Shown here: piece after piece, positions 1 through 57,327 of the stretch
How the letters are laid out: every line of letters starts with the position of its first letter
Numbering within the stretch: position 1 is the stretch's first letter
From: a virus
Lineage: Duplodnaviria > Caudoviricetes
Virus record (IMG/VR): IMGVR_UViG_3300028591_000141
Coordinates: 1 to 64,000 of that record
Reading direction: 5' to 3' (one strand)
DNA length: 64,000 nt
Notes under the pieces: generated by a model
Told to the model about the DNA's origin: nothing
The model's input: only the letters and a program-made list of their open reading frames with translations
The model's database searches: none
Translations under genes and position numbers: made by a program

Positions 1-1098
1 CAGCACACCGGAAAGTCTTTCGGCAACACTGCTGAATATGCTTGCGTCTTTTGTCTGTTCTGAAATACCGCTGTCCTGGCTGCTAATTCCCCTTGCTTCC
101 TTAGCGACCTGAATAGCAGTTTTCATATTTCCGTAATTGAACTCTGCTTCTATTTTTCTGTTCGCTTCGTTTGCAAGTGCGGCTTCTTCTTTTTTTGCTT
201 CAAGAATAGCTTCAAACCTTTTCGCATATTCATCCGCTGCGTTTGTTGCATCTTTTGTCTTTGATGTTACCTGTCCAGTTTCTTCTATAATATCCTTGAT
301 GTCTTTCTTAATGCCTGTGTACGGGATAATGGCGTTTTTGCCTCCGGACATGGGGGTTGTGTTTCGTGCCATACCCTCCATCAGGTCATTTGTCTTTCCG
401 AGGTAGTCATTCAGGTTTCCAACTTCCGAACTCATGCCGGTCAGGTACTGGACCGGTTCGCCCAGTCTGGCATTCATCGTATCAACAGCGTCTGATACCG
501 TGCCTTCGACCTCAATGGCGCCTTCCTTCCATGCTGTCCATCCTTTTTCCACATCTGTGGAAACGCCCGTCTGGTCTCCGGCCGGCAGCGACATGGATGA
601 AATAATCCGGGAGTATGCTTCAAACATCTCCCTAAACTGCTCAATTCCTCCGCTCCACGCCTTGTTCTGCATCAGTGCCTGCGTATCGCGCAAAGAGGAA
701 TTCATCCCGTCGATGCCGCCTTTTGCTTCGAAAGTGCGGCTCTTAATGTCTTCGAAACCGGTATTGATTCCGGACATGTCCTGCATTGTTTCCCGCACAG
801 CGGACCGAATGCTTTCAATGCTTGTCCCGCCGCCGATGCGGATGTTCAGGTCACCCATGCCTTTCAGTTTGCTGAGTTCATCGGCAAGCTGTCCGAGCTT
901 TACAAGCGTGGAACCGCTCAGCTCGTTGTTGATGACGTCAGTCAGTTTTTTCAGGCTGGTGGCAACAGTGCCGAGTTTCAGTCCACCTGATACGGCATGT
1001 TTAATACGAACAAGCGCGTCATCGAGTCGTTCAAGGCCTGTTGCCGCACTTTCGGAATTATCCTTAATTGTTAATTGAAGTACTCCTACATCCGGCAT
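1..1098 (-). CDS. Tape measure protein, N-terminal part (runs off window)
   Basis: ATG at 1098 (MPDVGVLQLTIKDNSESAATGLERL...), directly downstream of tail chaperones; helical A/K/E-rich sequence. Confidence 0.8.
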   Translation of the reverse strand, partial: MPDVGVLQLTIKDNSESAATGLERLDDALVRIKHAVSGGLKLGTVATSLKKLTDVINNELSGSTLVKLGQLADELSKLKGMGDLNIRIGGGTSIESIRSAVRETMQDMSGINTGFEDIKSRTFEAKGGIDGMNSSLRDTQALMQNKAWSGGIEQFREMFEAYSRIISSMSLPAGDQTGVSTDVEKGWTAWKEGAIEVEGTVSDAVDTMNARLGEPVQYLTGMSSEVGNLNDYLGKTNDLMEGMARNTTPMSGGKNAIIPYTGIKKDIKDIIEETGQVTSKTKDATNAADEYAKRFEAILEAKKEEAALANEANRKIEAEFNYGNMKTAIQVAKEARGISSQDSGISEQTKDASIFSSVAERLSGVL

Positions 1099-8311: not shown

Positions 8312-10039
8312 TTACCCTCCGTACCTTGGAGTACTCCGCCTTCCCCGGTTCGCGCAGCTCAGGCTGTCATACACCTGGTTGGCTTCCTTCTTGATGAACT
8401 TCCGTCCGCACACCGGGCACTGCGCCCACTGGCCTTTCTTGCTCTCACGGGATGAACCGCCGGCGCCTTCATCGCCTTCTGCCTGCGCCTTAATTCCTTC
8501 AGCGCTCGTCGGGTCCGTTGTGTCGTCTTCCTTCAGCGGGATCCCGTCCTCGCCGACCCCGTTCATCCGGTCCAGCTCTTTCGCAAGCATCTCCTGGTAA
8601 TCGTCGTACATGATGGCGTCGCTTTCCGGATCACGGCTCAGATGGCTGAACTTAAACGCCTGTACAGCAGGCATTCCGGCACTGCGAAGCGTTGCAAAAC
8701 TCTGAGTCTTTACAAGCAGGTCCTCGTAACTCTGCCTCCAGAACCGCGGCTCAAGGTCGGAAATTTTCAGCCCTGTCAGTACGTTCTGCTGGTTACAGAT
8801 CTTCAGCACAACCTTCAGGAACTCTGTCTCTGCCTTCTTCCACATGTTCTGTGTCTGAAGCGCCCGGCCTTCTGCATGCCACCATCCGTTACGCATAATG
8901 ACAGCGCCGTTATTGCTGCTGTCTCCGTTGCTCGCGTCACCCTGCGAAGGCATGCCGACAATCTCCAGCACAGTCCTCTTCATATCGTTTACAAGGGTCT
9001 GTGTCTGGCTCTGGTCCAGTTGCTCGTTCAGGTAATACAGTTTCTTTCCGCCGTTTGTGCCGTTCTGCGTCGGAGGAAGCTGAATTGCGCCAAGATCTTT
9101 CAGCTTCAACAGGTCCTCACGGGTAATGTCCACGCCGTCGAAGACCATCAGCGCCTGAATAAACTGCTCAATACCGTCCAGCCGGTTGCTCTGCGTCAGG
9201 TTAATCGCGTCCAGAAGCGGAAGAACCACTTCAAACGCGCCCATATAGTCCGGGTTGCACGGATACTCAATCAGACTGACCATGCCAAAGTTGTGCGTGA
9301 CAGTCTTGCTTTTGTTAATCTGAAGTTTCCCGGCGATTTCCTCAATCGTGTACGTCACGTTTTTCGTATAAACCGTGTATTCCGGGTCGCTGTGCGGCAG
9401 CGTCTTGTACACATAAGTTACGCCGGCAACAACCGTCTTTTTCGCGTCGTTATGGCGGATTACAAACGTGTTTTCAACGTCCGGAACAGCAATCTCAAAC
9501 GGCGCCTCATCCAGGAATTCATCGTTATTCCCGATATCATGCCATACAAGCCTGTATGCAACGCCGCATGTAAACATCTTGTGAGCCAGCTCAAGGTCAA
9601 GCGTCTGCTTTCCCTCTGAAATCATCATGTCGTTGACCCTGGAAACCTTCTCTGGAATGTCACGTCTGCTGTCGTCCACACCCTTGTTCCCACGCCTGCT
9701 GACGTACTGGATCGGCTCTCCGGCAAACTCTGATTCCTTAAACGTGATAATCTCGTTCGCCAGGTTCTCAACAACCTTGTTGTTGATCTCATCGTTGTAC
9801 TTCTTTGTCCGCTCCAATACAGGCTGTATTCCACGTTCGTACTTCTGGAGATAAATAATCTCTGCGCGATTCTTGTTGTGGACGGTCAACGCTTTCTGCA
9901 ACACGTCAACCACATTGTCCATGGTAATTTCGCTCTCGCTCGTGAATATCTGCCTGCGTCCGTGCAGCCCAGTGGAGTAATCCGGATCAATCCGGCCGTC
10001 TGTCACCGTCGTGTCATAAGCCTCAAGACTTTTACGCAT
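8312..10039 (-). CDS. Portal protein, SPP1 gp6-like, with C-terminal extension
   Basis: 'NNKVVENLANEI...GEPIQY', 'FEVVLPLLDAINLTQSNRLD'; start taken at MRKSLE after GGAGGGAGG. Confidence 0.9.
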   Translation of the reverse strand: MRKSLEAYDTTVTDGRIDPDYSTGLHGRRQIFTSESEITMDNVVDVLQKALTVHNKNRAEIIYLQKYERGIQPVLERTKKYNDEINNKVVENLANEIITFKESEFAGEPIQYVSRRGNKGVDDSRRDIPEKVSRVNDMMISEGKQTLDLELAHKMFTCGVAYRLVWHDIGNNDEFLDEAPFEIAVPDVENTFVIRHNDAKKTVVAGVTYVYKTLPHSDPEYTVYTKNVTYTIEEIAGKLQINKSKTVTHNFGMVSLIEYPCNPDYMGAFEVVLPLLDAINLTQSNRLDGIEQFIQALMVFDGVDITREDLLKLKDLGAIQLPPTQNGTNGGKKLYYLNEQLDQSQTQTLVNDMKRTVLEIVGMPSQGDASNGDSSNNGAVIMRNGWWHAEGRALQTQNMWKKAETEFLKVVLKICNQQNVLTGLKISDLEPRFWRQSYEDLLVKTQSFATLRSAGMPAVQAFKFSHLSRDPESDAIMYDDYQEMLAKELDRMNGVGEDGIPLKEDDTTDPTSAEGIKAQAEGDEGAGGSSRESKKGQWAQCPVCGRKFIKKEANQVYDSLSCANRGRRSTPRYGG

Positions 10040-10069
10040 CCGGATCCTCCCTCCCTCACTTATGTACAG

Positions 10070-10113
10070 AAAAAGACGCTGAACCAACGAGTTTCCTCGC
10101 CATTCAGCGTCTT
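10070..10113 (-). terminator. Terminator/attenuator between late promoter and portal gene
   Basis: AAGACGCTGAA...TTCAGCGTC followed by TTTTT. Confidence 0.75.
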
Positions 10114-10262: not shown

Positions 10263-11897
10263 TTAAAATAACCGCTCAAATACGCGAACCTGCCCCTGTC
10301 CGAACGTCTGCACATAGTCCGCCAGCATCGCCAGACTATCCGGTCCGTCATCGTGCTTTGCCTTCCCGTTCATTGTCCAGCTGCATACATTGTTCAGGAA
10401 CGTCCTGTATTCCTTGTCTTTGACCACGCTCTGGTCCTTAAATAGGAAATGTTCCTTCACAAACGGGCTTGCCATAATGATCTTCGTCTCTTTTTGCTGC
10501 GTCGTGTACTTTGTAGTCAGTTTCGTCCGCCCGCCGCGCCGCTTTACTTCTTCCTGCACGCTCTGCGCAACCCTGCCGCCTGCACTGTTCGACTCAAACC
10601 GCCCCATATGCACGTTGTGCTGAAGCAGTTTCGTCACGATCTCCGCTTCCACGTTCTCCGGGTTCGCGTTATTGAACACCACGTCCTCAATGTAGTAATC
10701 CTGGCCGTACTGATACGCAATCGGCATGGAGCAGTAGTCGATGCCCCGGTCCTTCGTATCGCACACGCACAGGATCGCGTCCGGTTCCCGGTCCGGAAGC
10801 TCAAAGTACCTCCGCAGCTCATCCGGATGATACAGCAGGCCTTCCCGCTCAATCGGCTGGTTCATGTACAGCGCCCTCCAGTTCGCGTCATCCATAATCC
10901 CACGCTGCTCAATGTAGAACGCCGTGCTGAATCCCACCCCATACAGGTAGTCAAAGTTGCTCTCGTCATTTTCATTCAGCGCCGGAATCGCAATAAACTC
11001 CGCCCTGTCGCTTCCTTCGTACTGCCGCTCCAGTCTGCCCAGAATATCATTGACGCTCCACCGGGTGGCTATGTGCAGTTCCTTGCAGTGATCCCCGATC
11101 TTCCGCTGCCGCAGGTCCGTCGTATACATATCCCACAGTTTGTCAAGCTGTTCCTTGCTCAAAGCGACCTCCAGTCCCTTGATCAGGTCGTCGCAGTACA
11201 ACAGCTGCCCCGCCCGGTACAGACCGGCGTTACCGGATCCGATTGACGTAAACTCCAGCGTCTCAAACCTCTTCGGTTTCCCCAGGTCAATCCGCAGGCT
11301 CTTCGCGTTTGTGTTTGATACGACCGTTTCCGGAAACACGTCATGCCACAGATATTCCCCGTGACCGTCAAAGATCCGCAGGCACTCGTCATATACACCG
11401 CGCACAAACTCATTATTGTGGCTTCCGGTGAGGTTCGGCTCTTCCGGCCACCTTCCGGCTACCCACGTCAGCAAAAATATTGCCAGCGTACTCTTGCCAA
11501 CGCCAGGGGGAAGGCTGATGCCCAATATGTCCAGAAGGTTGTCCATCAGCTTCTGTATGCTGTTTACAACCCGAAGCAGCTGTCTCCTCCTTGGAAGGTA
11601 GAACCGTTTTCTCGGCGCGCGGTTTCGCTCAATGTACTGACAGTACGCGTCAAACATCACCCGCGAATCAATCAGCAGGCTCTTGTAATACGTGTCTTCC
11701 AGGCTCTCCGCAATCCTCACCGTCGCACAGCCGCGCATGGATTTTGCGATAACCTTTCGCATCTGTGCATTGATGTCATGCCAGCCGGTCTCCCCTGCCT
11801 GCGTATGATCGTAAATTATCGAAAGAGCATCCCTGAACACAACCGGGTCGTCCGGATGCGCGTCAATGTATCGCTGAATCTTCTCAATCTCCGTCAT
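10263..11897 (-). CDS. terL: Terminase large subunit
   Basis: Walker A 'SLPPGVGKS', 'LYCDDLIK', nuclease 'KHDDGPDSL'. Confidence 0.92.
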   Translation of the reverse strand: MTEIEKIQRYIDAHPDDPVVFRDALSIIYDHTQAGETGWHDINAQMRKVIAKSMRGCATVRIAESLEDTYYKSLLIDSRVMFDAYCQYIERNRAPRKRFYLPRRRQLLRVVNSIQKLMDNLLDILGISLPPGVGKSTLAIFLLTWVAGRWPEEPNLTGSHNNEFVRGVYDECLRIFDGHGEYLWHDVFPETVVSNTNAKSLRIDLGKPKRFETLEFTSIGSGNAGLYRAGQLLYCDDLIKGLEVALSKEQLDKLWDMYTTDLRQRKIGDHCKELHIATRWSVNDILGRLERQYEGSDRAEFIAIPALNENDESNFDYLYGVGFSTAFYIEQRGIMDDANWRALYMNQPIEREGLLYHPDELRRYFELPDREPDAILCVCDTKDRGIDYCSMPIAYQYGQDYYIEDVVFNNANPENVEAEIVTKLLQHNVHMGRFESNSAGGRVAQSVQEEVKRRGGRTKLTTKYTTQQKETKIIMASPFVKEHFLFKDQSVVKDKEYRTFLNNVCSWTMNGKAKHDDGPDSLAMLADYVQTFGQGQVRVFERLF

Positions 11898-13161: not shown

Positions 13162-13428
13162 TTACTTCTCCTCAGTGTCTTCTTCGTCCCTGCTGTTTTC
13201 TACTTCATACCATCCGCTCCGAAGCGCTACATCCTTCGGAACCAGCATGATCTTGTACCCGAACACGCCGAGCATCTGATTCAACACGTTCGTGCTGAAG
13301 TTTCTCCTATTCAGTCTGCTCGCTAACGCGTTCGGCTGCAGTCCGAGCTTCTCTGCCAGCGCGTTAAACCGCACTCCGTTCTTACCCATCAGTTCCCTGA
13401 TAATCTCGTTCGTCTTCATCTCGTTCAT
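13162..13428 (-). CDS. Cro/XRE-like HTH repressor
   Basis: 'FNALAEKLGLQPNALASRL' HTH; own promoter at 13454-13482; start re-assigned from ORF track. Confidence 0.75.
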   Translation of the reverse strand: MNEMKTNEIIRELMGKNGVRFNALAEKLGLQPNALASRLNRRNFSTNVLNQMLGVFGYKIMLVPKDVALRSGWYEVENSRDEEDTEEK

Positions 13429-13453
13429 CTTCCTCTCGTGTCCTTTCATGATG

Positions 13454-13771
13454 ATGATATCACTTTTATGTGACCTTGTCAACACTTTTTTGTGACTATT
13501 TTGGCTTTTTTTATTTTTGGGATGCTGAGGAGGGTAAGGATGCCGGGGCGCCTGGGGCCGTATATCCCCGCGGGGCGGATCCGGTCCGCCGCGCCTGGCC
13601 AGGTTCCCGGCGGCATATAGCCAGGCGCCGGAACCATGCCGACGCGGAAACGGACGACCGTTTTTTTGTTTATATAATGGAAGAAAAAAATAATTCATAA
13701 AAAAGTGAGTAAAAAGTATTGACAATCATATTTTTGTGAGTTAATATTATCATGCAATCACAAATAAGTGA
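13454..13771. promoter_or_regulatory. Divergent SigA promoters with five palindromic operators TCAY-W6-GTGA
   Basis: Minus TTGACA-17-TATCAT (13482-13454); plus TTGACA-17-TAATAT (13719-13747); operators at 13460, 13482 (ACAC variant), 13695, 13726, 13758. Confidence 0.8.
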
Positions 13772-13800
13772 TTGACAATAAAAAATCGGAGGGCATGAAA

Positions 13801-14775
13801 ATGGAACTTATAACAAAAGACACACTGTCAACAATCAAGGCACTTGACGATGGATCCGCCGTATTGAAACTGTATAACAATGCCGCTTGCGTATTTGAAA
13901 AGACGTATAAATCTTTTCGCGGTGCAAAACAGGCGGAAAAATTCTATATTTCCCACGGTGCACCGGGAAACAATAAAATTGTTTGCAAGTGGTGTGGTTG
14001 GACGGGAACACGCGGCGAACTTGATTTTGACGAACACGACGCGCCGTCGTTTTGCCCGGTTTGCGGAAAAAACGAATTCAAAAAAAGCGACAAAAAAGGA
14101 TATGATATCAAAAAATTATTTGACGTCGTAGATAATGCAATTAATACGGACAGGGCCGTATTCCATGAGCCGCGCGACAATAGCAAGTTAAAAGGTATTC
14201 CATCGTTTAACCTTGCGCCGGGCCGGACCTGCAGCGCGGCGGCATGCGCGCATTGCTTAAAGGAAGGATGTTATGCAGTAAAAAACGCATGCTGTCACGG
14301 ATACGATATAGAAAACAATTATTGCCTTAAGGCCTGGACAGAAAACACGGCGCTTGCGATTAATCATCCGCGTGAACTGGAAAAGGCGCTTGACGCCTGG
14401 CTAACTAAAAACAGGCCCGCGCTTTTCCGTATTCATTCAAGTGGGGATATGTTTTCGGTAGAATACGCCCGCATGTGGCGCCGCATTGCAATGCGGCACG
14501 CGGAAACGCGTTTTCTGGCCTTTACGAAACAATTTGACGTTGTGCGGCACGTGCATTTTTACAAGCTCGCGAATTTTGAGCTTGTTTTGAGCGGCTGGAC
14601 GGGCGTACGCGTCCCGGACGACTTGCGGAAACATTATCGCGTTGCGTGGTGCAATGATGGACAGGAAAAGCGTATTCCGGCGGACGCGATACACTGTCCC
14701 GGCGATTGTAACAAGTGCCGCGCATGTTGGTACTTGTCCAGGCTGCAAAAAGACAGCTATTTTGACAAGCACTGA
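13801..14775 (+). CDS. GP88-like Cys-rich protein with N-terminal zinc ribbon
   Basis: 'SFNLAPGRTC...C..C...GCYA', 'FRIHSSGDMFSVEY', 'FTK', 'CPGDCNKCRACW'; CKWC/CPVC ribbon. Confidence 0.7.
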   Translation: MELITKDTLSTIKALDDGSAVLKLYNNAACVFEKTYKSFRGAKQAEKFYISHGAPGNNKIVCKWCGWTGTRGELDFDEHDAPSFCPVCGKNEFKKSDKKGYDIKKLFDVVDNAINTDRAVFHEPRDNSKLKGIPSFNLAPGRTCSAAACAHCLKEGCYAVKNACCHGYDIENNYCLKAWTENTALAINHPRELEKALDAWLTKNRPALFRIHSSGDMFSVEYARMWRRIAMRHAETRFLAFTKQFDVVRHVHFYKLANFELVLSGWTGVRVPDDLRKHYRVAWCNDGQEKRIPADAIHCPGDCNKCRACWYLSRLQKDSYFDKH

Positions 14776-14856
14776 GCCCGGACCCGGCCGGGCCCGCGTC
14801 CGGCCGGGTATATATACCACGTAAAAAAACGACTAAAAAAAGCGGAGGGAAAAACA

Positions 14857-15147
14857 ATGGATATTAATACAATTATTGCAAACTACCTGCAGGAAAAGGC
14901 CGCGGAGGCCGCCGCAAAAAAACGCGCGGAGGCAATGAAGGCACTTATACTTGACCATGCTAAAAACGCGGATAATTTTACGACAGACGTTTACACCGTT
15001 GTTATAAAAACGTCGTCAAGTGTACGCCTGGACACGGCGGCGCTTTACAGAGACTTTCCGGATATAAAAGACACGTACGGAAAAACAACGACGTCAAAAA
15101 CAGTTAACGCCGTTATAACGGCGGACGCGGAAAAGAAAAGCGCTTGA
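14857..15147 (+). CDS. Small coiled-coil protein of MGE type
   Basis: RBS GGAGG; 'RLDTAALYRDFPDI..TY.KTTTS' resembles C-terminal tail of YqaJ-like exonucleases. Confidence 0.65.
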   Translation: MDINTIIANYLQEKAAEAAAKKRAEAMKALILDHAKNADNFTTDVYTVVIKTSSSVRLDTAALYRDFPDIKDTYGKTTTSKTVNAVITADAEKKSA

Positions 15148-15202
15148 TTGTAACGGGCCCGGGCGGAGCGGATCCGCCCGGAGCCGCGGCGCTATATATG
15201 AA

Positions 15203-15646
15203 ATGGAGGTTTTGAAAATGTATTATACCGTTTACGACGTGCACGAAAACAGGAACACGAAAAGCTTTTTCGGGTATGAAATAGTTGTTGACGGCGAGCA
15301 CGGCCGCGATACTTTCCCGGGCAAGTGGGACCCGGCGGAGGCTAAACGCCATTATATGCAGGGCCTGCCGTGGTCCGAACCACTGAAAAACGCGCACACG
15401 TATATTATCTGTCTTTCCGGCAACTTTTACGCGCTCGCGGCGGACGCGTTTATGACTACAGTGTACGCAATTGGTCCGGACCGGCGCGGCCTGAATGACG
15501 CGGAATATTTCACGGGCTCCGTAAAGGAAAGAAACGCCGCCATCCGCTCGGTATGCGTTCCGCACGACTACAAAACCGCGCGCCGCATTGCAGAAGAGAA
15601 CGGCATTTATTCCGGACAGCTTTACGCATACGAAACGGAGGTGTAA
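15203..15646 (+). CDS. Hypothetical protein (island)
   Basis: RBS GGAGG (likely start at MYYTV); operon context. Confidence 0.65.
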   Translation: MEVLKMYYTVYDVHENRNTKSFFGYEIVVDGEHGRDTFPGKWDPAEAKRHYMQGLPWSEPLKNAHTYIICLSGNFYALAADAFMTTVYAIGPDRRGLNDAEYFTGSVKERNAAIRSVCVPHDYKTARRIAEENGIYSGQLYAYETEV

Positions 15647-15650
15647 ACAT

Positions 15651-15914
15651 ATGAAAATGTTATTGACGGCGGACCGGATCCGCACCGTTGTTGCGGACGC
15701 CCGGACCGAAAAAGATATAGAGCTGTCGCTCCGCTCGCACAAAATAAAGTTTTCCTACGATACAAGCGCCGGGTTTATGGCCTTCAGAATTCCGGCCCGC
15801 TCCGGTACGGTCCTGGTATATCGGACCTGTAACCGCTCCACCCCTTTTGCGGTCAGGTGCTCCGCTCCGGCCGTCTATCCGTACACACTGCCCCGTCTCG
15901 CCTGTGGTGATTGA
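15651..15914 (+). CDS. Hypothetical protein (island)
   Basis: RBS GGAGGTG before ATG 15651. Confidence 0.6.
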   Translation: MKMLLTADRIRTVVADARTEKDIELSLRSHKIKFSYDTSAGFMAFRIPARSGTVLVYRTCNRSTPFAVRCSAPAVYPYTLPRLACGD

Positions 15915-15931
15915 CAAGGGAGGTTCAGACC

Positions 15932-16183
15932 ATGGGAAGAAAGTACACTGGCCTTTTTGAGGATGAAGTGGCGGAGCTGCTCCGCTCCGCCGCTCCGGGT
16001 GCCGTGATTGTTTCCGGTCCGTTTTCCTGGAGCATGGCGCACACGCTCGCGGAGGACGGCATATATACAAGCGGTGCCGGTTATGTGACCGAATATATAA
16101 ACGGGATCCGCTCCGGTATCCGCTCCGCCGCTTCTCTTGTTTTCCGCCTTGCGCATACTGATTTTGAAATTATGGAGGTATAA
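15932..16183 (+). CDS. Hypothetical protein (island)
   Basis: RBS GGAGGT before ATG 15932. Confidence 0.6.
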   Translation: MGRKYTGLFEDEVAELLRSAAPGAVIVSGPFSWSMAHTLAEDGIYTSGAGYVTEYINGIRSGIRSAASLVFRLAHTDFEIMEV

Positions 16184-16187
16184 AGCA

Positions 16188-16934
16188 ATGTATAATTCCG
16201 CTCCGTATACCACGCCCGGCGGCCGCGTTTACCGCCTGTATACGCACCTTGCCGACCGTCCGCACCTGCTCATTGCAGGCGCCACCGGTTCCGGTAAAAG
16301 CGTGACTATAAACGGCATTATATACGCGCTACTGGCCACCCGTGCCCCGTCCGAATGCGGTTTTATCCTGCTGGACCCGAAAAAGGTGGAGCTTGTCCAG
16401 TACGCACGCCTGCCGCACGTCGTCCGCTATGCGTCGGAACCGTCCGACATGATCGACGCGCTAGAATATGCCGTCCTGGAAACGGAGCGCCGCTTTTCAG
16501 AAATGCAGCGCGCCGGCGTCCGGGAATATTCCGGCCCGGACCTGTACGTGATCGTCGACGAGCTCGCCGACCTCATGGTAACACAAAAGAACGTCGCCCT
16601 GCCTCCGCTCCAGCGCCTGGCACAGATCGGCCGCGCCGCTCATGTGCACGTGATCGCCTGCACGCAAAACGTTATGGCCGTAACAATCCCGACCGTCCTG
16701 AAATGCAATTTTCCGGCCGTTCTAGGCCTGCGTACGGCCACGGCGGCACAATCCCGCTACCTGATCGCTGCACCGGGCTGTGAGACCCTTCCAGACCCGA
16801 AAAAGACCGGTAAAGGCTGCGGGTACCTCCGCGACGGTGCTGACCTGGACCGTTATGAACTCTACATGTACCCTGAAGAAGAAATCACCCGCATGATTAA
16901 TTACTGGACCGCCGGCGCCCGCCGTGCCAGCTGA
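16188..16934 (+). CDS. Stand-alone FtsK/SpoIIIE-family ATPase domain
   Basis: 'HLLIAGATGSGKS', 'LLDPK', 'YVIVDELADL', 'QIGRAAHVHVIACTQ'; no TM or gamma domain. Confidence 0.88.
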   Translation: MYNSAPYTTPGGRVYRLYTHLADRPHLLIAGATGSGKSVTINGIIYALLATRAPSECGFILLDPKKVELVQYARLPHVVRYASEPSDMIDALEYAVLETERRFSEMQRAGVREYSGPDLYVIVDELADLMVTQKNVALPPLQRLAQIGRAAHVHVIACTQNVMAVTIPTVLKCNFPAVLGLRTATAAQSRYLIAAPGCETLPDPKKTGKGCGYLRDGADLDRYELYMYPEEEITRMINYWTAGARRAS

Positions 16935-16948
16935 TGGGAGGAATTAAC

Positions 16949-17149
16949 ATGACGCCTGAAATGCTGTATGAAGAAACGATTTCGTTCCTGGCTACCTGCC
17001 TGCTGGGCGAAGGTGACCCGGAACCGATGACCGCTGAGGATGCCGCCTATACTATGTCCAACTGGACCGCGGAAGGCATCGAATATCCGGAAGGTATGAC
17101 GCCGGATCTGATGTCCGCCGTATGGAATTGCATGATCGCTACCATGTGA
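16949..17149 (+). CDS. Small acidic hypothetical protein
   Basis: RBS GGAGGA; D/E-rich with no K or R; followed by hairpin plus T-tract at ~17163-17197. Confidence 0.6.
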   Translation: MTPEMLYEETISFLATCLLGEGDPEPMTAEDAAYTMSNWTAEGIEYPEGMTPDLMSAVWNCMIATM

Positions 17150-17362
17150 TACACCCGCTCCGCCACCGCTCCGGGATCCGTTCCCGGGGTGGTTTTTCTT
17201 TGTTCAAATACGCTCGTTTTTGGCTCTCGTCTGTTGTCCTGTTTTCCTACTTAAATCTTCCCTGTTTTGATCTGTTATTTTTGTCTTTACTTATGTCTAT
17301 TTCTACTTGCCACAATCCCCCGTTTATGGTATCATATTTCCATGAAGGGAGGTTTACGCCTT

Positions 17363-17923
17363 ATGAAAATCGGATATGCCCGCGTTTCCACTCAAGACCA
17401 GAACCTGGACCGCCAGCTGGACAACCTCCGCGCCGCCGGTTGCGAACGGATCTTCAATGAGAAGATGACCGGAACGAAATCAGACCGGCCGGAGCTCAAG
17501 ACCATGCTGCTTACGCTCCGCCCCGGTGACATCCTCGTCATCGATTCCTTCTCTCGTCTCAGCCGCTCCACAAAGGACCTGCTTGATCTCGTCGACCGGT
17601 TGACCGGGATGGGCGTCCACCTTGTCAGCCTGAAGGAAAACCTGGACACAACCACGGCCACGGGGAAACTGATGCTGACGATGCTTTCCGCTCTGTCTCA
17701 GTTTGAGCGTGACCTGATCGCTGAGCGCACGGTTGACGGTCTGAAGGCCGCCCGGGCCCGCGGTCGCTGCGGAGGCCGTCCCCGTGCCGGAACGGATAAG
17801 GACCGTCAGCAGGCGCTGGCCATGTACGACGCCAATGTGATGAGTAACGCGGAGATCGCCGCTCATTTCAACGTATCGCAATCGACGCTCAGCCGCTGGA
17901 TCCGCAGCAGGAAGCAGGGATAA
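17363..17923 (+). CDS. Small serine recombinase (resolvase/invertase)
   Basis: 'KIGYARVSTQDQNLDRQ...DRPEL...SRLSRS', C-terminal HTH; AT-rich upstream region 17200-17340 (possible res site). Confidence 0.93.
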   Translation: MKIGYARVSTQDQNLDRQLDNLRAAGCERIFNEKMTGTKSDRPELKTMLLTLRPGDILVIDSFSRLSRSTKDLLDLVDRLTGMGVHLVSLKENLDTTTATGKLMLTMLSALSQFERDLIAERTVDGLKAARARGRCGGRPRAGTDKDRQQALAMYDANVMSNAEIAAHFNVSQSTLSRWIRSRKQG

Positions 17924-55365: not shown

Positions 55366-57327
55366 TTATCCCTCCTGTATTACAATTTCGGTCGAACAGT
55401 TGCAGTTGCAGGTCCCATCAGGCCCGAGGATGTCATCCCCCGGCCAGTCAGCGCCGTTTGAGAATCTGTCATCAATTCCGACCATCTCGCCGTCCATCAT
55501 CGCGTGCTCCGGGCGCGGATTGTCGCCGGTTACCCAAACCTTAGAAATTGTTTTCCTGAAGCCCTGGCGCTCAGACTGATGGCAAGCCTCCTGCGTGGCC
55601 CAGCTGGCCACCGCCGTCGCGACGGAGCGCCCGAGCATACTGGACTCCGTTTCTTCGCGTTTCTTCATGGCATCCGCCGGAGACTCACTGTCCTCATCAT
55701 CCGGATCGTAATTGTCCTGGACTTCCTGCAGCTTCTTTTTCGTCTTGTTGTTTGTCGCCTTTGCCCGTCCTTCAGCCATCGCCCGGATGAAAGCCACCGT
55801 GGCGTCCATATAGTAGTTGACGCCCAGGATGCCGGCAGTCTCTTCACCGTGCGCTCTGTTCACCACGTTCATGACCGGCTCAAGGTCATCCGCCAGTTCT
55901 TTGTTCCAGCGTTTTTCGTCGAACCAGTCCGGGTTGCCGGCGCCCAGTTTCGGCAGGATGCTGTTCCCCTGGCGCTTGAAAAACTTTTTCAGCACGTCAG
56001 CGATCAGTTCGTCTTCTTCCTTTGTGGAGCGTCCTTTGACACGGATCTCATAAGATTTGCACTCAGGGCACCCGCAAGCGGCAGAACGAATCGGCACCGG
56101 TTCTTCCGGGGTGGATTCCGTTGCCATTTCGTTTCCCGTGCTAAGGTTCAGCGGAACGATGATGTCGTCACCGCCATCGATCGGAGGCAGATTGTTGTCC
56201 GCTCTGGCCTCGTTCCGCGTCATCCACGGCCCCCCAACGGCTGCCTGCAGGATCGCGGCGCGTTCCTCGAAGGATCCCTTCAGTTTTTCCGTCAGGTCAA
56301 ACTCGACATACAGATCAGGATCCGCGCCGATCATCGGCAGCAAGAAAGAGTTAATCCGCTGCTGGATCATCTGCAGATCCGGCCCGAGGCACTCCGCATA
56401 CAGCGCGCGGCTGTTATCCTTGGCGCTCGCGTAGGTCTGTGTGTCCGTATGCCACACAAGGGAAGGATTGATCCTGTATGCAGCTGCCACGGCCTCCCTG
56501 GACAGCTTGATCGATTCAGCCCACTGCTGCTCTTTGAACGACGTTGAGAACGGTTTGATCTCCATGCCGTCCTCGAGCAGCGGAATTGATCCGGCTTTGC
56601 TTCCACCGGCGCCCCAGGCTTCACGGAACGCGGTTATCCAGCGCTTTTTCGTTTCCTCATCCCACGGCTGCACATCTTTCGGCCTGATAATCTGTGCATT
56701 CAGCCGCCCGGATGATTTCCACAGTTCCTTCCGGAACCGCCCAGCCTGGATCTGTTCTTCCAGCGTCTGCCGGAGTGCGGAAACCGGACTGACATACCCG
56801 CCCGGATTGCCAGGAGAATACGTGTTAAACCGCACGAACTCACTCGACGGGATCTCGATCTGGTTCCCGGACTGCGTCCGCACGGTGATGCTCTCGGGGC
56901 CGTATGCGTTTACCTTGTTCGTCTGTGTGACCCATTCCGTCGGAACGATCCGCAGCTGATACCCTGAGTCGCTTTCAGCGTCCGGAAGGACCCACACATA
57001 CACGCAACCAAACACGAAGTACTCCGTCGCGATCGCCCGGATGAATTCATACTCCGTCTGATCGCTGTTCGGGCGCCATAGTAAAAGCGCGGCCGTGCTT
57101 GTCCGGTCGCGCTCCCTGTCAGTTTCACCTTTTCGCCTGTAGACCTTCAGCGGCAGCTGAGCGATACTGTTCGCCAGGAAATTGACAACCGCTGACAGGT
57201 TGTCCTGGCTGTTGTAAAGCTGCCGCGCCGTATAATTCAAGACATTCGACGGCGCGTCAGGCCCCAGATATACCTGGTAGACATTCGGCTTAAACAATGT
57301 CCGCCAGCGTTCCACAATTCCAGGCAT
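55366..57327 (-). CDS. HK97-family portal fused to gpF/gp7-like minor head domain
   Basis: 'IAQLPLKVY...WMTRNEARA..NLPPIDGGD' followed by 'KVWVT...RPEH...FSNG..WPGD...NCNC'. Confidence 0.88.
   Translation of the reverse strand: MPGIVERWRTLFKPNVYQVYLGPDAPSNVLNYTARQLYNSQDNLSAVVNFLANSIAQLPLKVYRRKGETDRERDRTSTAALLLWRPNSDQTEYEFIRAIATEYFVFGCVYVWVLPDAESDSGYQLRIVPTEWVTQTNKVNAYGPESITVRTQSGNQIEIPSSEFVRFNTYSPGNPGGYVSPVSALRQTLEEQIQAGRFRKELWKSSGRLNAQIIRPKDVQPWDEETKKRWITAFREAWGAGGSKAGSIPLLEDGMEIKPFSTSFKEQQWAESIKLSREAVAAAYRINPSLVWHTDTQTYASAKDNSRALYAECLGPDLQMIQQRINSFLLPMIGADPDLYVEFDLTEKLKGSFEERAAILQAAVGGPWMTRNEARADNNLPPIDGGDDIIVPLNLSTGNEMATESTPEEPVPIRSAACGCPECKSYEIRVKGRSTKEEDELIADVLKKFFKRQGNSILPKLGAGNPDWFDEKRWNKELADDLEPVMNVVNRAHGEETAGILGVNYYMDATVAFIRAMAEGRAKATNNKTKKKLQEVQDNYDPDDEDSESPADAMKKREETESSMLGRSVATAVASWATQEACHQSERQGFRKTISKVWVTGDNPRPEHAMMDGEMVGIDDRFSNGADWPGDDILGPDGTCNCNCSTEIVIQEG

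Follow-up and report, generated by a model that had tools for sequence, protein, structure and literature searches.

Experiments on lytic T5-like and T7-like phages have already shown that defence motifs can be avoided in just one part of a genome, with the avoidance mattering only in the DNA that is injected first; an example is the early region of T7-like Autographiviridae, where Murciavirus is set against the Mme2I Type I system, the motif of which has an AGAG half-site (PMC12455610). A different kind of specialised segment is the hot zone of CRISPR spacer acquisition, which the passages of PMC8860600 that draw on Modell 2017 and Levy 2015 describe as extending from a free DNA end to the first Chi site.

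We analysed the first 64 kb (here called the window) of a 98,779-bp virus record (a 98.8-kb contig) from a family of sheep-rumen phages, among whose members an early-gene island is conserved. In the promoter-proximal 1.5-2 kb of this island, the trinucleotide GAG and its complement (GAG/CTC) are scarce, a property that belongs to the DNA itself and is maintained. As in the first-step-transfer DNA of T5 and the early region of T7-like phages, the depletion is sub-genomic, the rest of the genome keeps the motif and the promoters are of host type, although the genome end is putative here. Unlike in those phages, the avoided word is only three letters long and is not part of any recognisable longer motif, a broad shift in composition accompanies the depletion, and the phage is a temperate-looking siphophage with an SPP1-type portal and integrase genes. 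As in a leading region, the depletion is confined to one segment and is specific to the word beyond what composition and codon usage account for, about half of the fold-change being compositional. Like an acquisition hot zone, the GAG/CTC-poor zone lies between a putative end and the first word of a Chi-like array, i.e. where spacer acquisition would concentrate. Like morons and mosaic cassettes, the island has its own promoter, an orientation opposite to that of its neighbours and a composition unlike its flanks; unlike them, it is conserved together with its position, it has diverged in step with terL and the portal gene, its composition has been kept up instead of converging on that of the flanks, and one word is depleted beyond composition. 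A recently imported cassette or moron was therefore rejected, given the synteny in L001, L003, L056 and L057 (related phage contigs), the terL-like divergence and the low GAG density that is kept.

The features of the locus, in window coordinates, are the following.

13162..13725, minus strand: divergent HTH regulator, longest ORF (weak HTH matches in Pfam and to phrog_8)
13436..15165, unstranded: GAG/CTC-poor zone (14 in 1730 bp, i.e. 8 per kb vs ~23 per kb)
13482-13454, minus strand: promoter-like site of the HTH gene (11/12 matches)
13483..13718, unstranded: G+C-rich structured spacer between the divergent promoters (DNA fold better than 200 of 200 shuffles, z = -3.4)
13681..16787, unstranded: GAAG/CTTC-poor zone (7 in 3.1 kb, i.e. 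~2.3 per kb vs 12.9 per kb)
13719..13747, plus strand: sigma-70-like island promoter, TTGACA-17-TAATAT (consensus scan, 10/12 matches)
13801..14775, plus strand: GP88-family gene (324 aa), the gene flagged for its 4 GAG/CTC (PF17338, 56.4 bits)
14857..15147, plus strand: 96-aa ORF within the GAG-poor zone, beside GP88 in L001 and L003 too
15797..17569, plus strand: one-strand array of 13 CCGYTCC words (GGARCGG on the minus strand), the sole cluster in the contig
16137..16934, plus strand: FtsK/SpoIIIE-like ATPase gene (PF01580, E = 4.8e-34)
17267..17923, plus strand: resolvase/invertase-type serine recombinase, last plus-strand gene of the island (PF00239, E = 2e-45)

The GP88 gene is the first gene of a plus-strand island set between minus-strand phage modules, with terL (10263-11897) and the SPP1-type portal gene (8312-10087) on one side and replication genes on the other. 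The island encodes GP88, three small ORFs, the FtsK/SpoIIIE-like ATPase, an acidic 71-aa ORF and the recombinase. In related phages the conserved gene order is terL, the regulator, then GP88, two small ORFs and FtsK. The FtsK-like ATPase is 61-63% identical in L001 and L003, the 96-aa ORF, which weakly matches the C-terminal part of phrog_434, is 49-52% identical there by tblastn, and the recombinase is 86% identical in L001 and missing from L003. The island has diverged about as much as terL and the portal gene, with synteny kept in L001, L003, L056 and L057. The HTH regulator is probably translated from a start near 13430, which lies downstream of its promoter-like site on the minus strand. 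GP88 has a GGAGGG ribosome-binding site 7 nt before its ATG (13801). The structured spacer contains a terminator-like hairpin (13646-13665), and an Rfam search of 13-18 kb returned no match. A 26-codon ORF with a strong GAGGAGGG ribosome-binding site also lies within the spacer (13540-13620, plus strand). Further into the island, the 71-aa ORF (16934-17149, plus strand) has a pI of 4.1 with 12 acidic and 0 basic residues, a charge pattern reminiscent of small DNA-mimic proteins; it has no family match.

The first-pass annotation, made from the letters of this stretch, had counted only four GAG/CTC trinucleotides in 13801-14760, all of them in GAGC/GCTC context, and our recount agrees (14167, 14566, 14578 and 14589), against a contig mean of 22.8 per 960 bp. 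The protein sequence combined with the codon usage of the contig predicts 20.8-21.6 (p < 0.0005), whereas synonymous shuffling within the gene predicts 11.0 +/- 2.2, with 0 of 2000 shuffles reaching 4, and a first-order Markov model likewise predicts 11.0. The depletion is thus not accounted for by amino-acid composition and codon bias shared with other genes, under which ~21 would be expected. Among the 102 called genes of the contig the GP88 gene has the lowest observed/expected ratio (0.19), and it contains two of the three longest GAG/CTC-free gaps in the contig, 399 and 378 bp long and next to each other. In a Markov-1 z-score scan of the contig the gene falls outside the top 25 because its expected count is small; it is extreme by ratio.

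The depletion extends beyond the gene. The GAG/CTC-poor zone begins ~360 bp before the start codon and spans the control region, the GP88 gene and the next small ORF. The bias had been said to relax after ~15.7 kb, but GAG/CTC already relaxes at about 15.17-15.5 kb, and part of the rise past 15.7 kb consists of CTC within CCGCTCC words, the array of which runs from 15797. The zone is also present in L056, L057, L003, L005, L013 and L014, with a pooled zone/flank ratio of 0.34 for zones drawn by eye, and the six closer metagenome relatives (L054-L059) carry 3-10 GAG/CTC per kb. Its bounds are sharp: in L056 (80% DNA identity) successive 500-bp bins contain 15, then 2, 3, 4 and 1, then 14, 13, 14 and 15 GAG/CTC, i.e. 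10 in the 2 kb of the zone vs about 28 per kb outside.

The same avoidance is seen gene by gene in more distant orthologues, where GAG/CTC was observed 3 times vs 17.4 expected in L003, 9 vs 25.9 in L005, 4 vs 12.6 in L014 and 14 vs 24.9 in L001, ranking first to third among 32 words in each of them. In a pool of five orthologues no other of the 32 trinucleotides had an observed/Markov-1 ratio as low as that of GAG/CTC (0.43 vs 0.74 in the flanks). The depletion is independent of strand and frame: over nine orthologues and the three codon frames, GAG stands at 0.22, 0.28 and 0.42 of expectation and CTC at 0.60, 0.39 and 0.19. Between orthologues that are 66-92% identical the alignment columns holding GAG differ, so the positions turn over and the low density is maintained rather than inherited; inheritance from a GAG-free ancestor was rejected on this ground. 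The GAGC-only context of the four survivors does not hold in the relatives, and we rejected GAGC as a tolerated context, the pattern being a small-sample effect. The bases flanking 71 surviving GAGs from 13 orthologues resemble those of 1452 GAGs elsewhere, and no motif longer than the GAG trinucleotide was seen around these 71. Other GP88 clades (L072-L077 and L081) have 28-42 GAG/CTC per kb and GAG-preferring codon use. The avoidance is therefore a feature of one GP88 clade and is not family-wide, and the idea that the protein dictates the depletion was rejected, both for the GAG-rich clades and for the ~21 GAG/CTC expected from the protein with contig codons.

The other words named in the first-pass annotation behave differently from one another. 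The single GAAG/CTTC in 13801-14760 (at 14263) is correct, the mean being 12.5 per 960 bp, and for the GP88 gene one compares with 9.5-10 expected (p about 0.0005). GAAG/CTTC stays scarce to ~16.8 kb, beyond the end of the GAG/CTC zone, and within its poor zone GA/TC and AG/CT steps are scarce and CG and AA steps frequent. Its depletion is common to the nearest relatives (in L056 there are 6 over a sharply bounded 4-kb island vs 16 per kb outside) and is absent from the L003 orthologue. The count of one GATC was also correct (mean 6.9 per 960 bp), but since 1.4-3.0 would be expected the shortfall is not significant, and GATC avoidance was rejected. CCGG, GGCC and CGCG are not avoided, as had been noted, with 7, 5 and 16 occurrences vs means of 8.9, 4.0 and 5.0 per 960 bp. 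Over 13801-15000, CGCG is commoner than in the rest of the record by a factor of 3-4 and AAAA/TTTT by a factor of about 4, A-runs alternate with CG/GC clusters, and nearly all depleted trinucleotides have a C beside a pyrimidine. The strongest trinucleotide under-representation in the Markov-1 scan of the record falls further along, at 15100-16300, where CGA/TCG occurs 14 times vs 41 and CCC/GGG 16-18 times vs 42-45.

The scarcity of GAG/CTC has two layers: island composition roughly halves the expectation, and a word-specific avoidance lowers the count a further two- to threefold. At 14-17 kb the relative abundances of dinucleotides are 0.68-0.89 for GA/TC, 0.55-0.69 for AG/CT, 1.35-1.64 for CG and 1.4-1.6 for AA/TT, vs about 1.1, 0.88, 1.08 and 1.1 elsewhere. 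Words that contain GA or AG steps (AGA, CAG, GAT, TCAG, GATG) are low across the island with counts near lower-order expectation, and most of its 4-mer depletion is accounted for by lower-order composition. All contig genes also show a mild codon-junction bias against GAG/CTC (ratios of 0.7-1.0), after which the residue specific to GP88 is modest, i.e. 4 vs about 9. In log terms the fivefold depletion divides into ~40% dinucleotide composition, ~20% general junction bias and ~40% that is specific to GAG/CTC here.

One rival explanation is that the island has a codon and dinucleotide regime of its own (GAA over GAG, NCG codons, few GA and AG steps) with no link to defence, arising from its origin or from an expression-related constraint, so that GAG/CTC would merely be the most visible of the shifted words. 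The dinucleotide abundances at 14-17 kb, the many other low words that sit close to Markov expectations and the fall in expectation from 21 to 11 through codon choice alone are all in keeping with this, as is the very heterogeneous codon usage among contig genes; other 1-kb windows are equally depleted of other trinucleotides, though these track G+C content. Against it, GAG/CTC remains at 0.36-0.43 of its own Markov or shuffle expectation, the minimum among reference genes being 0.71, both orientations and all frames are affected, and the GAG/CTC zone stops inside the operon while GAAG remains low. In orthologues whose synonymous sites are saturated, GAG/CTC sits at new positions but is still sparse, whereas a composition that is not maintained should drift towards that of the flanks, and the co-divergence of the island with terL and the portal gene speaks against recent import. 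We consider a regime of this kind possible but rather unlikely as the whole explanation.

A regional mutational process, e.g. C-to-T change at cytosines beside a pyrimidine, would convert CT, TC and CC to TT and leave A/T runs and CG/GC clusters behind. The strongly depleted trinucleotides (CTC, TCT, CTG, ATC, ACC, TCA and CCT) do all have a C beside a pyrimidine (or G beside a purine), the enriched ones (GCG, ACG, GCA and AAA) are a purine-flanked C or an A/T run, and AAAA/TTTT is enriched fourfold. However, the depletion is strand-symmetric, and the skews of the island are those of ordinary coding DNA with no sign of single-strand exposure. AGA/TCT is at its Markov expectation and GAG/CTC is not, L003 lacks the GA/TC shift yet has the GAG/CTC depletion, and no known mechanism would confine such a process to 2-4 kb. 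We consider a mutational origin quite improbable.

Selection could instead act on the mRNA, against words resembling ribosome-binding sites (GGAG, GAGG) and their complements (CTCC, CCTC) or against the targets of RNA-cutting enzymes, in a transcript that needs immediate translation. The consensus promoter and GGAGGG site of the GP88 gene would suit such a transcript, GGAG/CTCC and GAGG/CCTC both number 0 inside the gene, and GGAG is slightly under-represented among surviving GAGs of the orthologues (15 vs 23). However, the depletion does not vary with the flanking bases (TGAG, CGAG, GAGC and GAGT are all affected alike), it extends into the non-transcribed control region, CTC is as depleted as GAG in all frames, and AGGA, which belongs to the same ribosome-binding consensus, occurs in the GP88 gene. 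We regard selection on the transcript as very improbable. A chance fluctuation picked post hoc has in its favour that word and window were chosen after inspection, from 32 words and about 100 windows, but 0 of 2000 shuffles reach the observed count, and replication in independent orthologues from other samples refutes it for practical purposes.

The reading that we favour, with a probability of roughly 0.4, is that purifying selection acts on the double-stranded DNA and removes a very short element that a host defence reads. The rarity of GAG/CTC would be due to selection and not to mutation bias, and island DNA would enter the cell first and meet that defence while the phage is still unprotected. 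The first-pass annotation had similarly proposed selection against asymmetric recognition sites of the adenine-methylation type (Type I, IIG, III or BREX-like) in DNA that must be expressed before it is protected. In its support, the effect acts at DNA level, is promoter-proximal and is kept in diverged orthologues, and restriction avoidance is a plausible reading. Other results do not support it: no longer motif emerged, GATC is not significant, the GAAG depletion is absent in L003, about half of the effect is compositional, and no anti-restriction function was found. Among the island proteins there was no match to an anti-restriction or defence family (PADLOC included) except for the generic FtsK ATPase fold, and none of the DNA methyltransferase families PF01555, PF00145 and PF02086 was found in the record. 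The data neither show nor exclude a Type I, IIG, III or BREX adenine-methylation specificity for the avoided word. To our knowledge no defence system reads bare GAG, and we know of no Type I, IIG, III or BREX system of which a bare 3-bp word is the whole site; it would be at most a half-site or core. A full restriction site would be a poorer fit to an element of 3 bp than a Type I half-site, a Type III/IIG core or a CRISPR PAM.

For such selection to act on the island, the zone would have to be exposed ahead of the remaining genome. It plausibly marks the genome end that enters the capsid last and the cell first, because it lies beside the packaging genes and upstream of the one-strand, putatively Chi-like array, of which only the one-strand clustering and the position are confirmed here. 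The array faces lower coordinates and begins where the GAG/CTC-poor zone ends, and the zone followed by the array is found in the same order in the window, L003, L001, L056 and L057. The contig ends of 66 metagenome loci are inconsistent, with no pile-up at one position upstream of the GP88 gene. As the rest of the phage has a normal GAG density, any benefit would depend on stepwise or delayed exposure, which would have to occur in a siphophage with an integrase. A host search over 401 Clostridia genomes and 64 genomes of one family found only one genome (G257) with a related terL, in a prophage that has 38% G+C and lacks the island.

Selection against a short defence element could also take a more specific form, which we think improbable, in which the 1.5-2 kb stretch between the injected end and the first Chi-like word is a runway kept nearly free of the 3-bp element. 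A host nuclease that processes DNA ends would chew this stretch, feeding CRISPR adaptation or another end-dependent defence, and if the element were a PAM or the target of a 3-bp reader, few usable fragments or cleavable sites would arise. PAMs are 2-4 bp long and free of orientation at genome scale. For type I-E systems GAG is known as a minor PAM at most, and we know of no description of a PAM-depleted runway.

If selection against a short defence element is the cause, the logic of the T5-like and T7-like cases would extend to a family of temperate-type rumen siphophages, with a unit of 3 bp and a zone tied to a Chi-like array. Leading-region 'stealth' DNA would then be widespread, and some host factor would read words far shorter than classical restriction sites. 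A word-poor zone followed by a one-strand array would provide a computational handle on the injected end and on anti-defence genes in uncultured phages, and the GP88 protein would be a candidate for the function expressed first. Should composition be the sole cause, the locus serves as a warning that about half of a striking k-mer 'avoidance' can stem from dinucleotide composition.

The GP88 assignment is secure by profile (PF17338, gathering cut-off 24.4 bits, E = 5e-15). We found 106 homologues, all on phage-like contigs, of which 105 match PF17338; a literature search on PF17338 found no paper, and a scan of genome contigs with the GP88 protein alone gave no match. In an AlphaFold model of the product (pLDDT 88), residues 117-324 are closest in fold to radical-SAM enzymes, with all Z scores below 8 (spore photoproduct lyase 7.9, QueE 7.1, viperin 6.8). 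A Foldseek search of the model against the PDB returned nothing at E <= 0.001 and there is no Pfam Radical_SAM match in the protein, so the radical-SAM-like fold is a lead with middling scores. The canonical radical-SAM spacing is CX3CX2C, placed after the first strand, whereas GP88 has an invariant CX3CX2C at its extreme C-terminus instead (C299, C303 and C306; residues 299-309, window 14695-14727). A second invariant set of cysteines (C144, C152 and C157, i.e. CX7CX4C) lies at the start of the predicted barrel. This copy also differs from the PF17338 family in having an extra N-terminal domain and a CxxC...CxxC insertion. The insertion, zinc-ribbon-like and ~40 residues long (residues ~57-97, window 13969-14091), is modelled with low confidence and is missing from 22 of 22 aligned homologues, while the near-identical L054 seems to have the same one.

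The record holds two phage genomes, given its two portal genes (8312-10087 and 55366-57327) and two large-terminase genes. The island is found in the first phage only, as are the word-poor zone and the CCGYTCC array, and the second phage is without a comparable zone. Beyond the window, a block of low G+C content (0.37-0.42) at 85000-92000 of the contig has almost no GATC and contains long gaps free of GAG/CTC and of GAAG/CTTC, up to 859 bp, and a gene at 90199-92961 has 39 GAG/CTC vs 77 expected. Finally, the minus-strand ORF cut off at position 1 of the window (1-1098) stays open in frame into the last 300 bases of the record, so the 'linear' record is probably circularly permuted, and a tape-measure-like gene would span the junction (1-1098 on the minus strand and 94928-98779 at the contig end).
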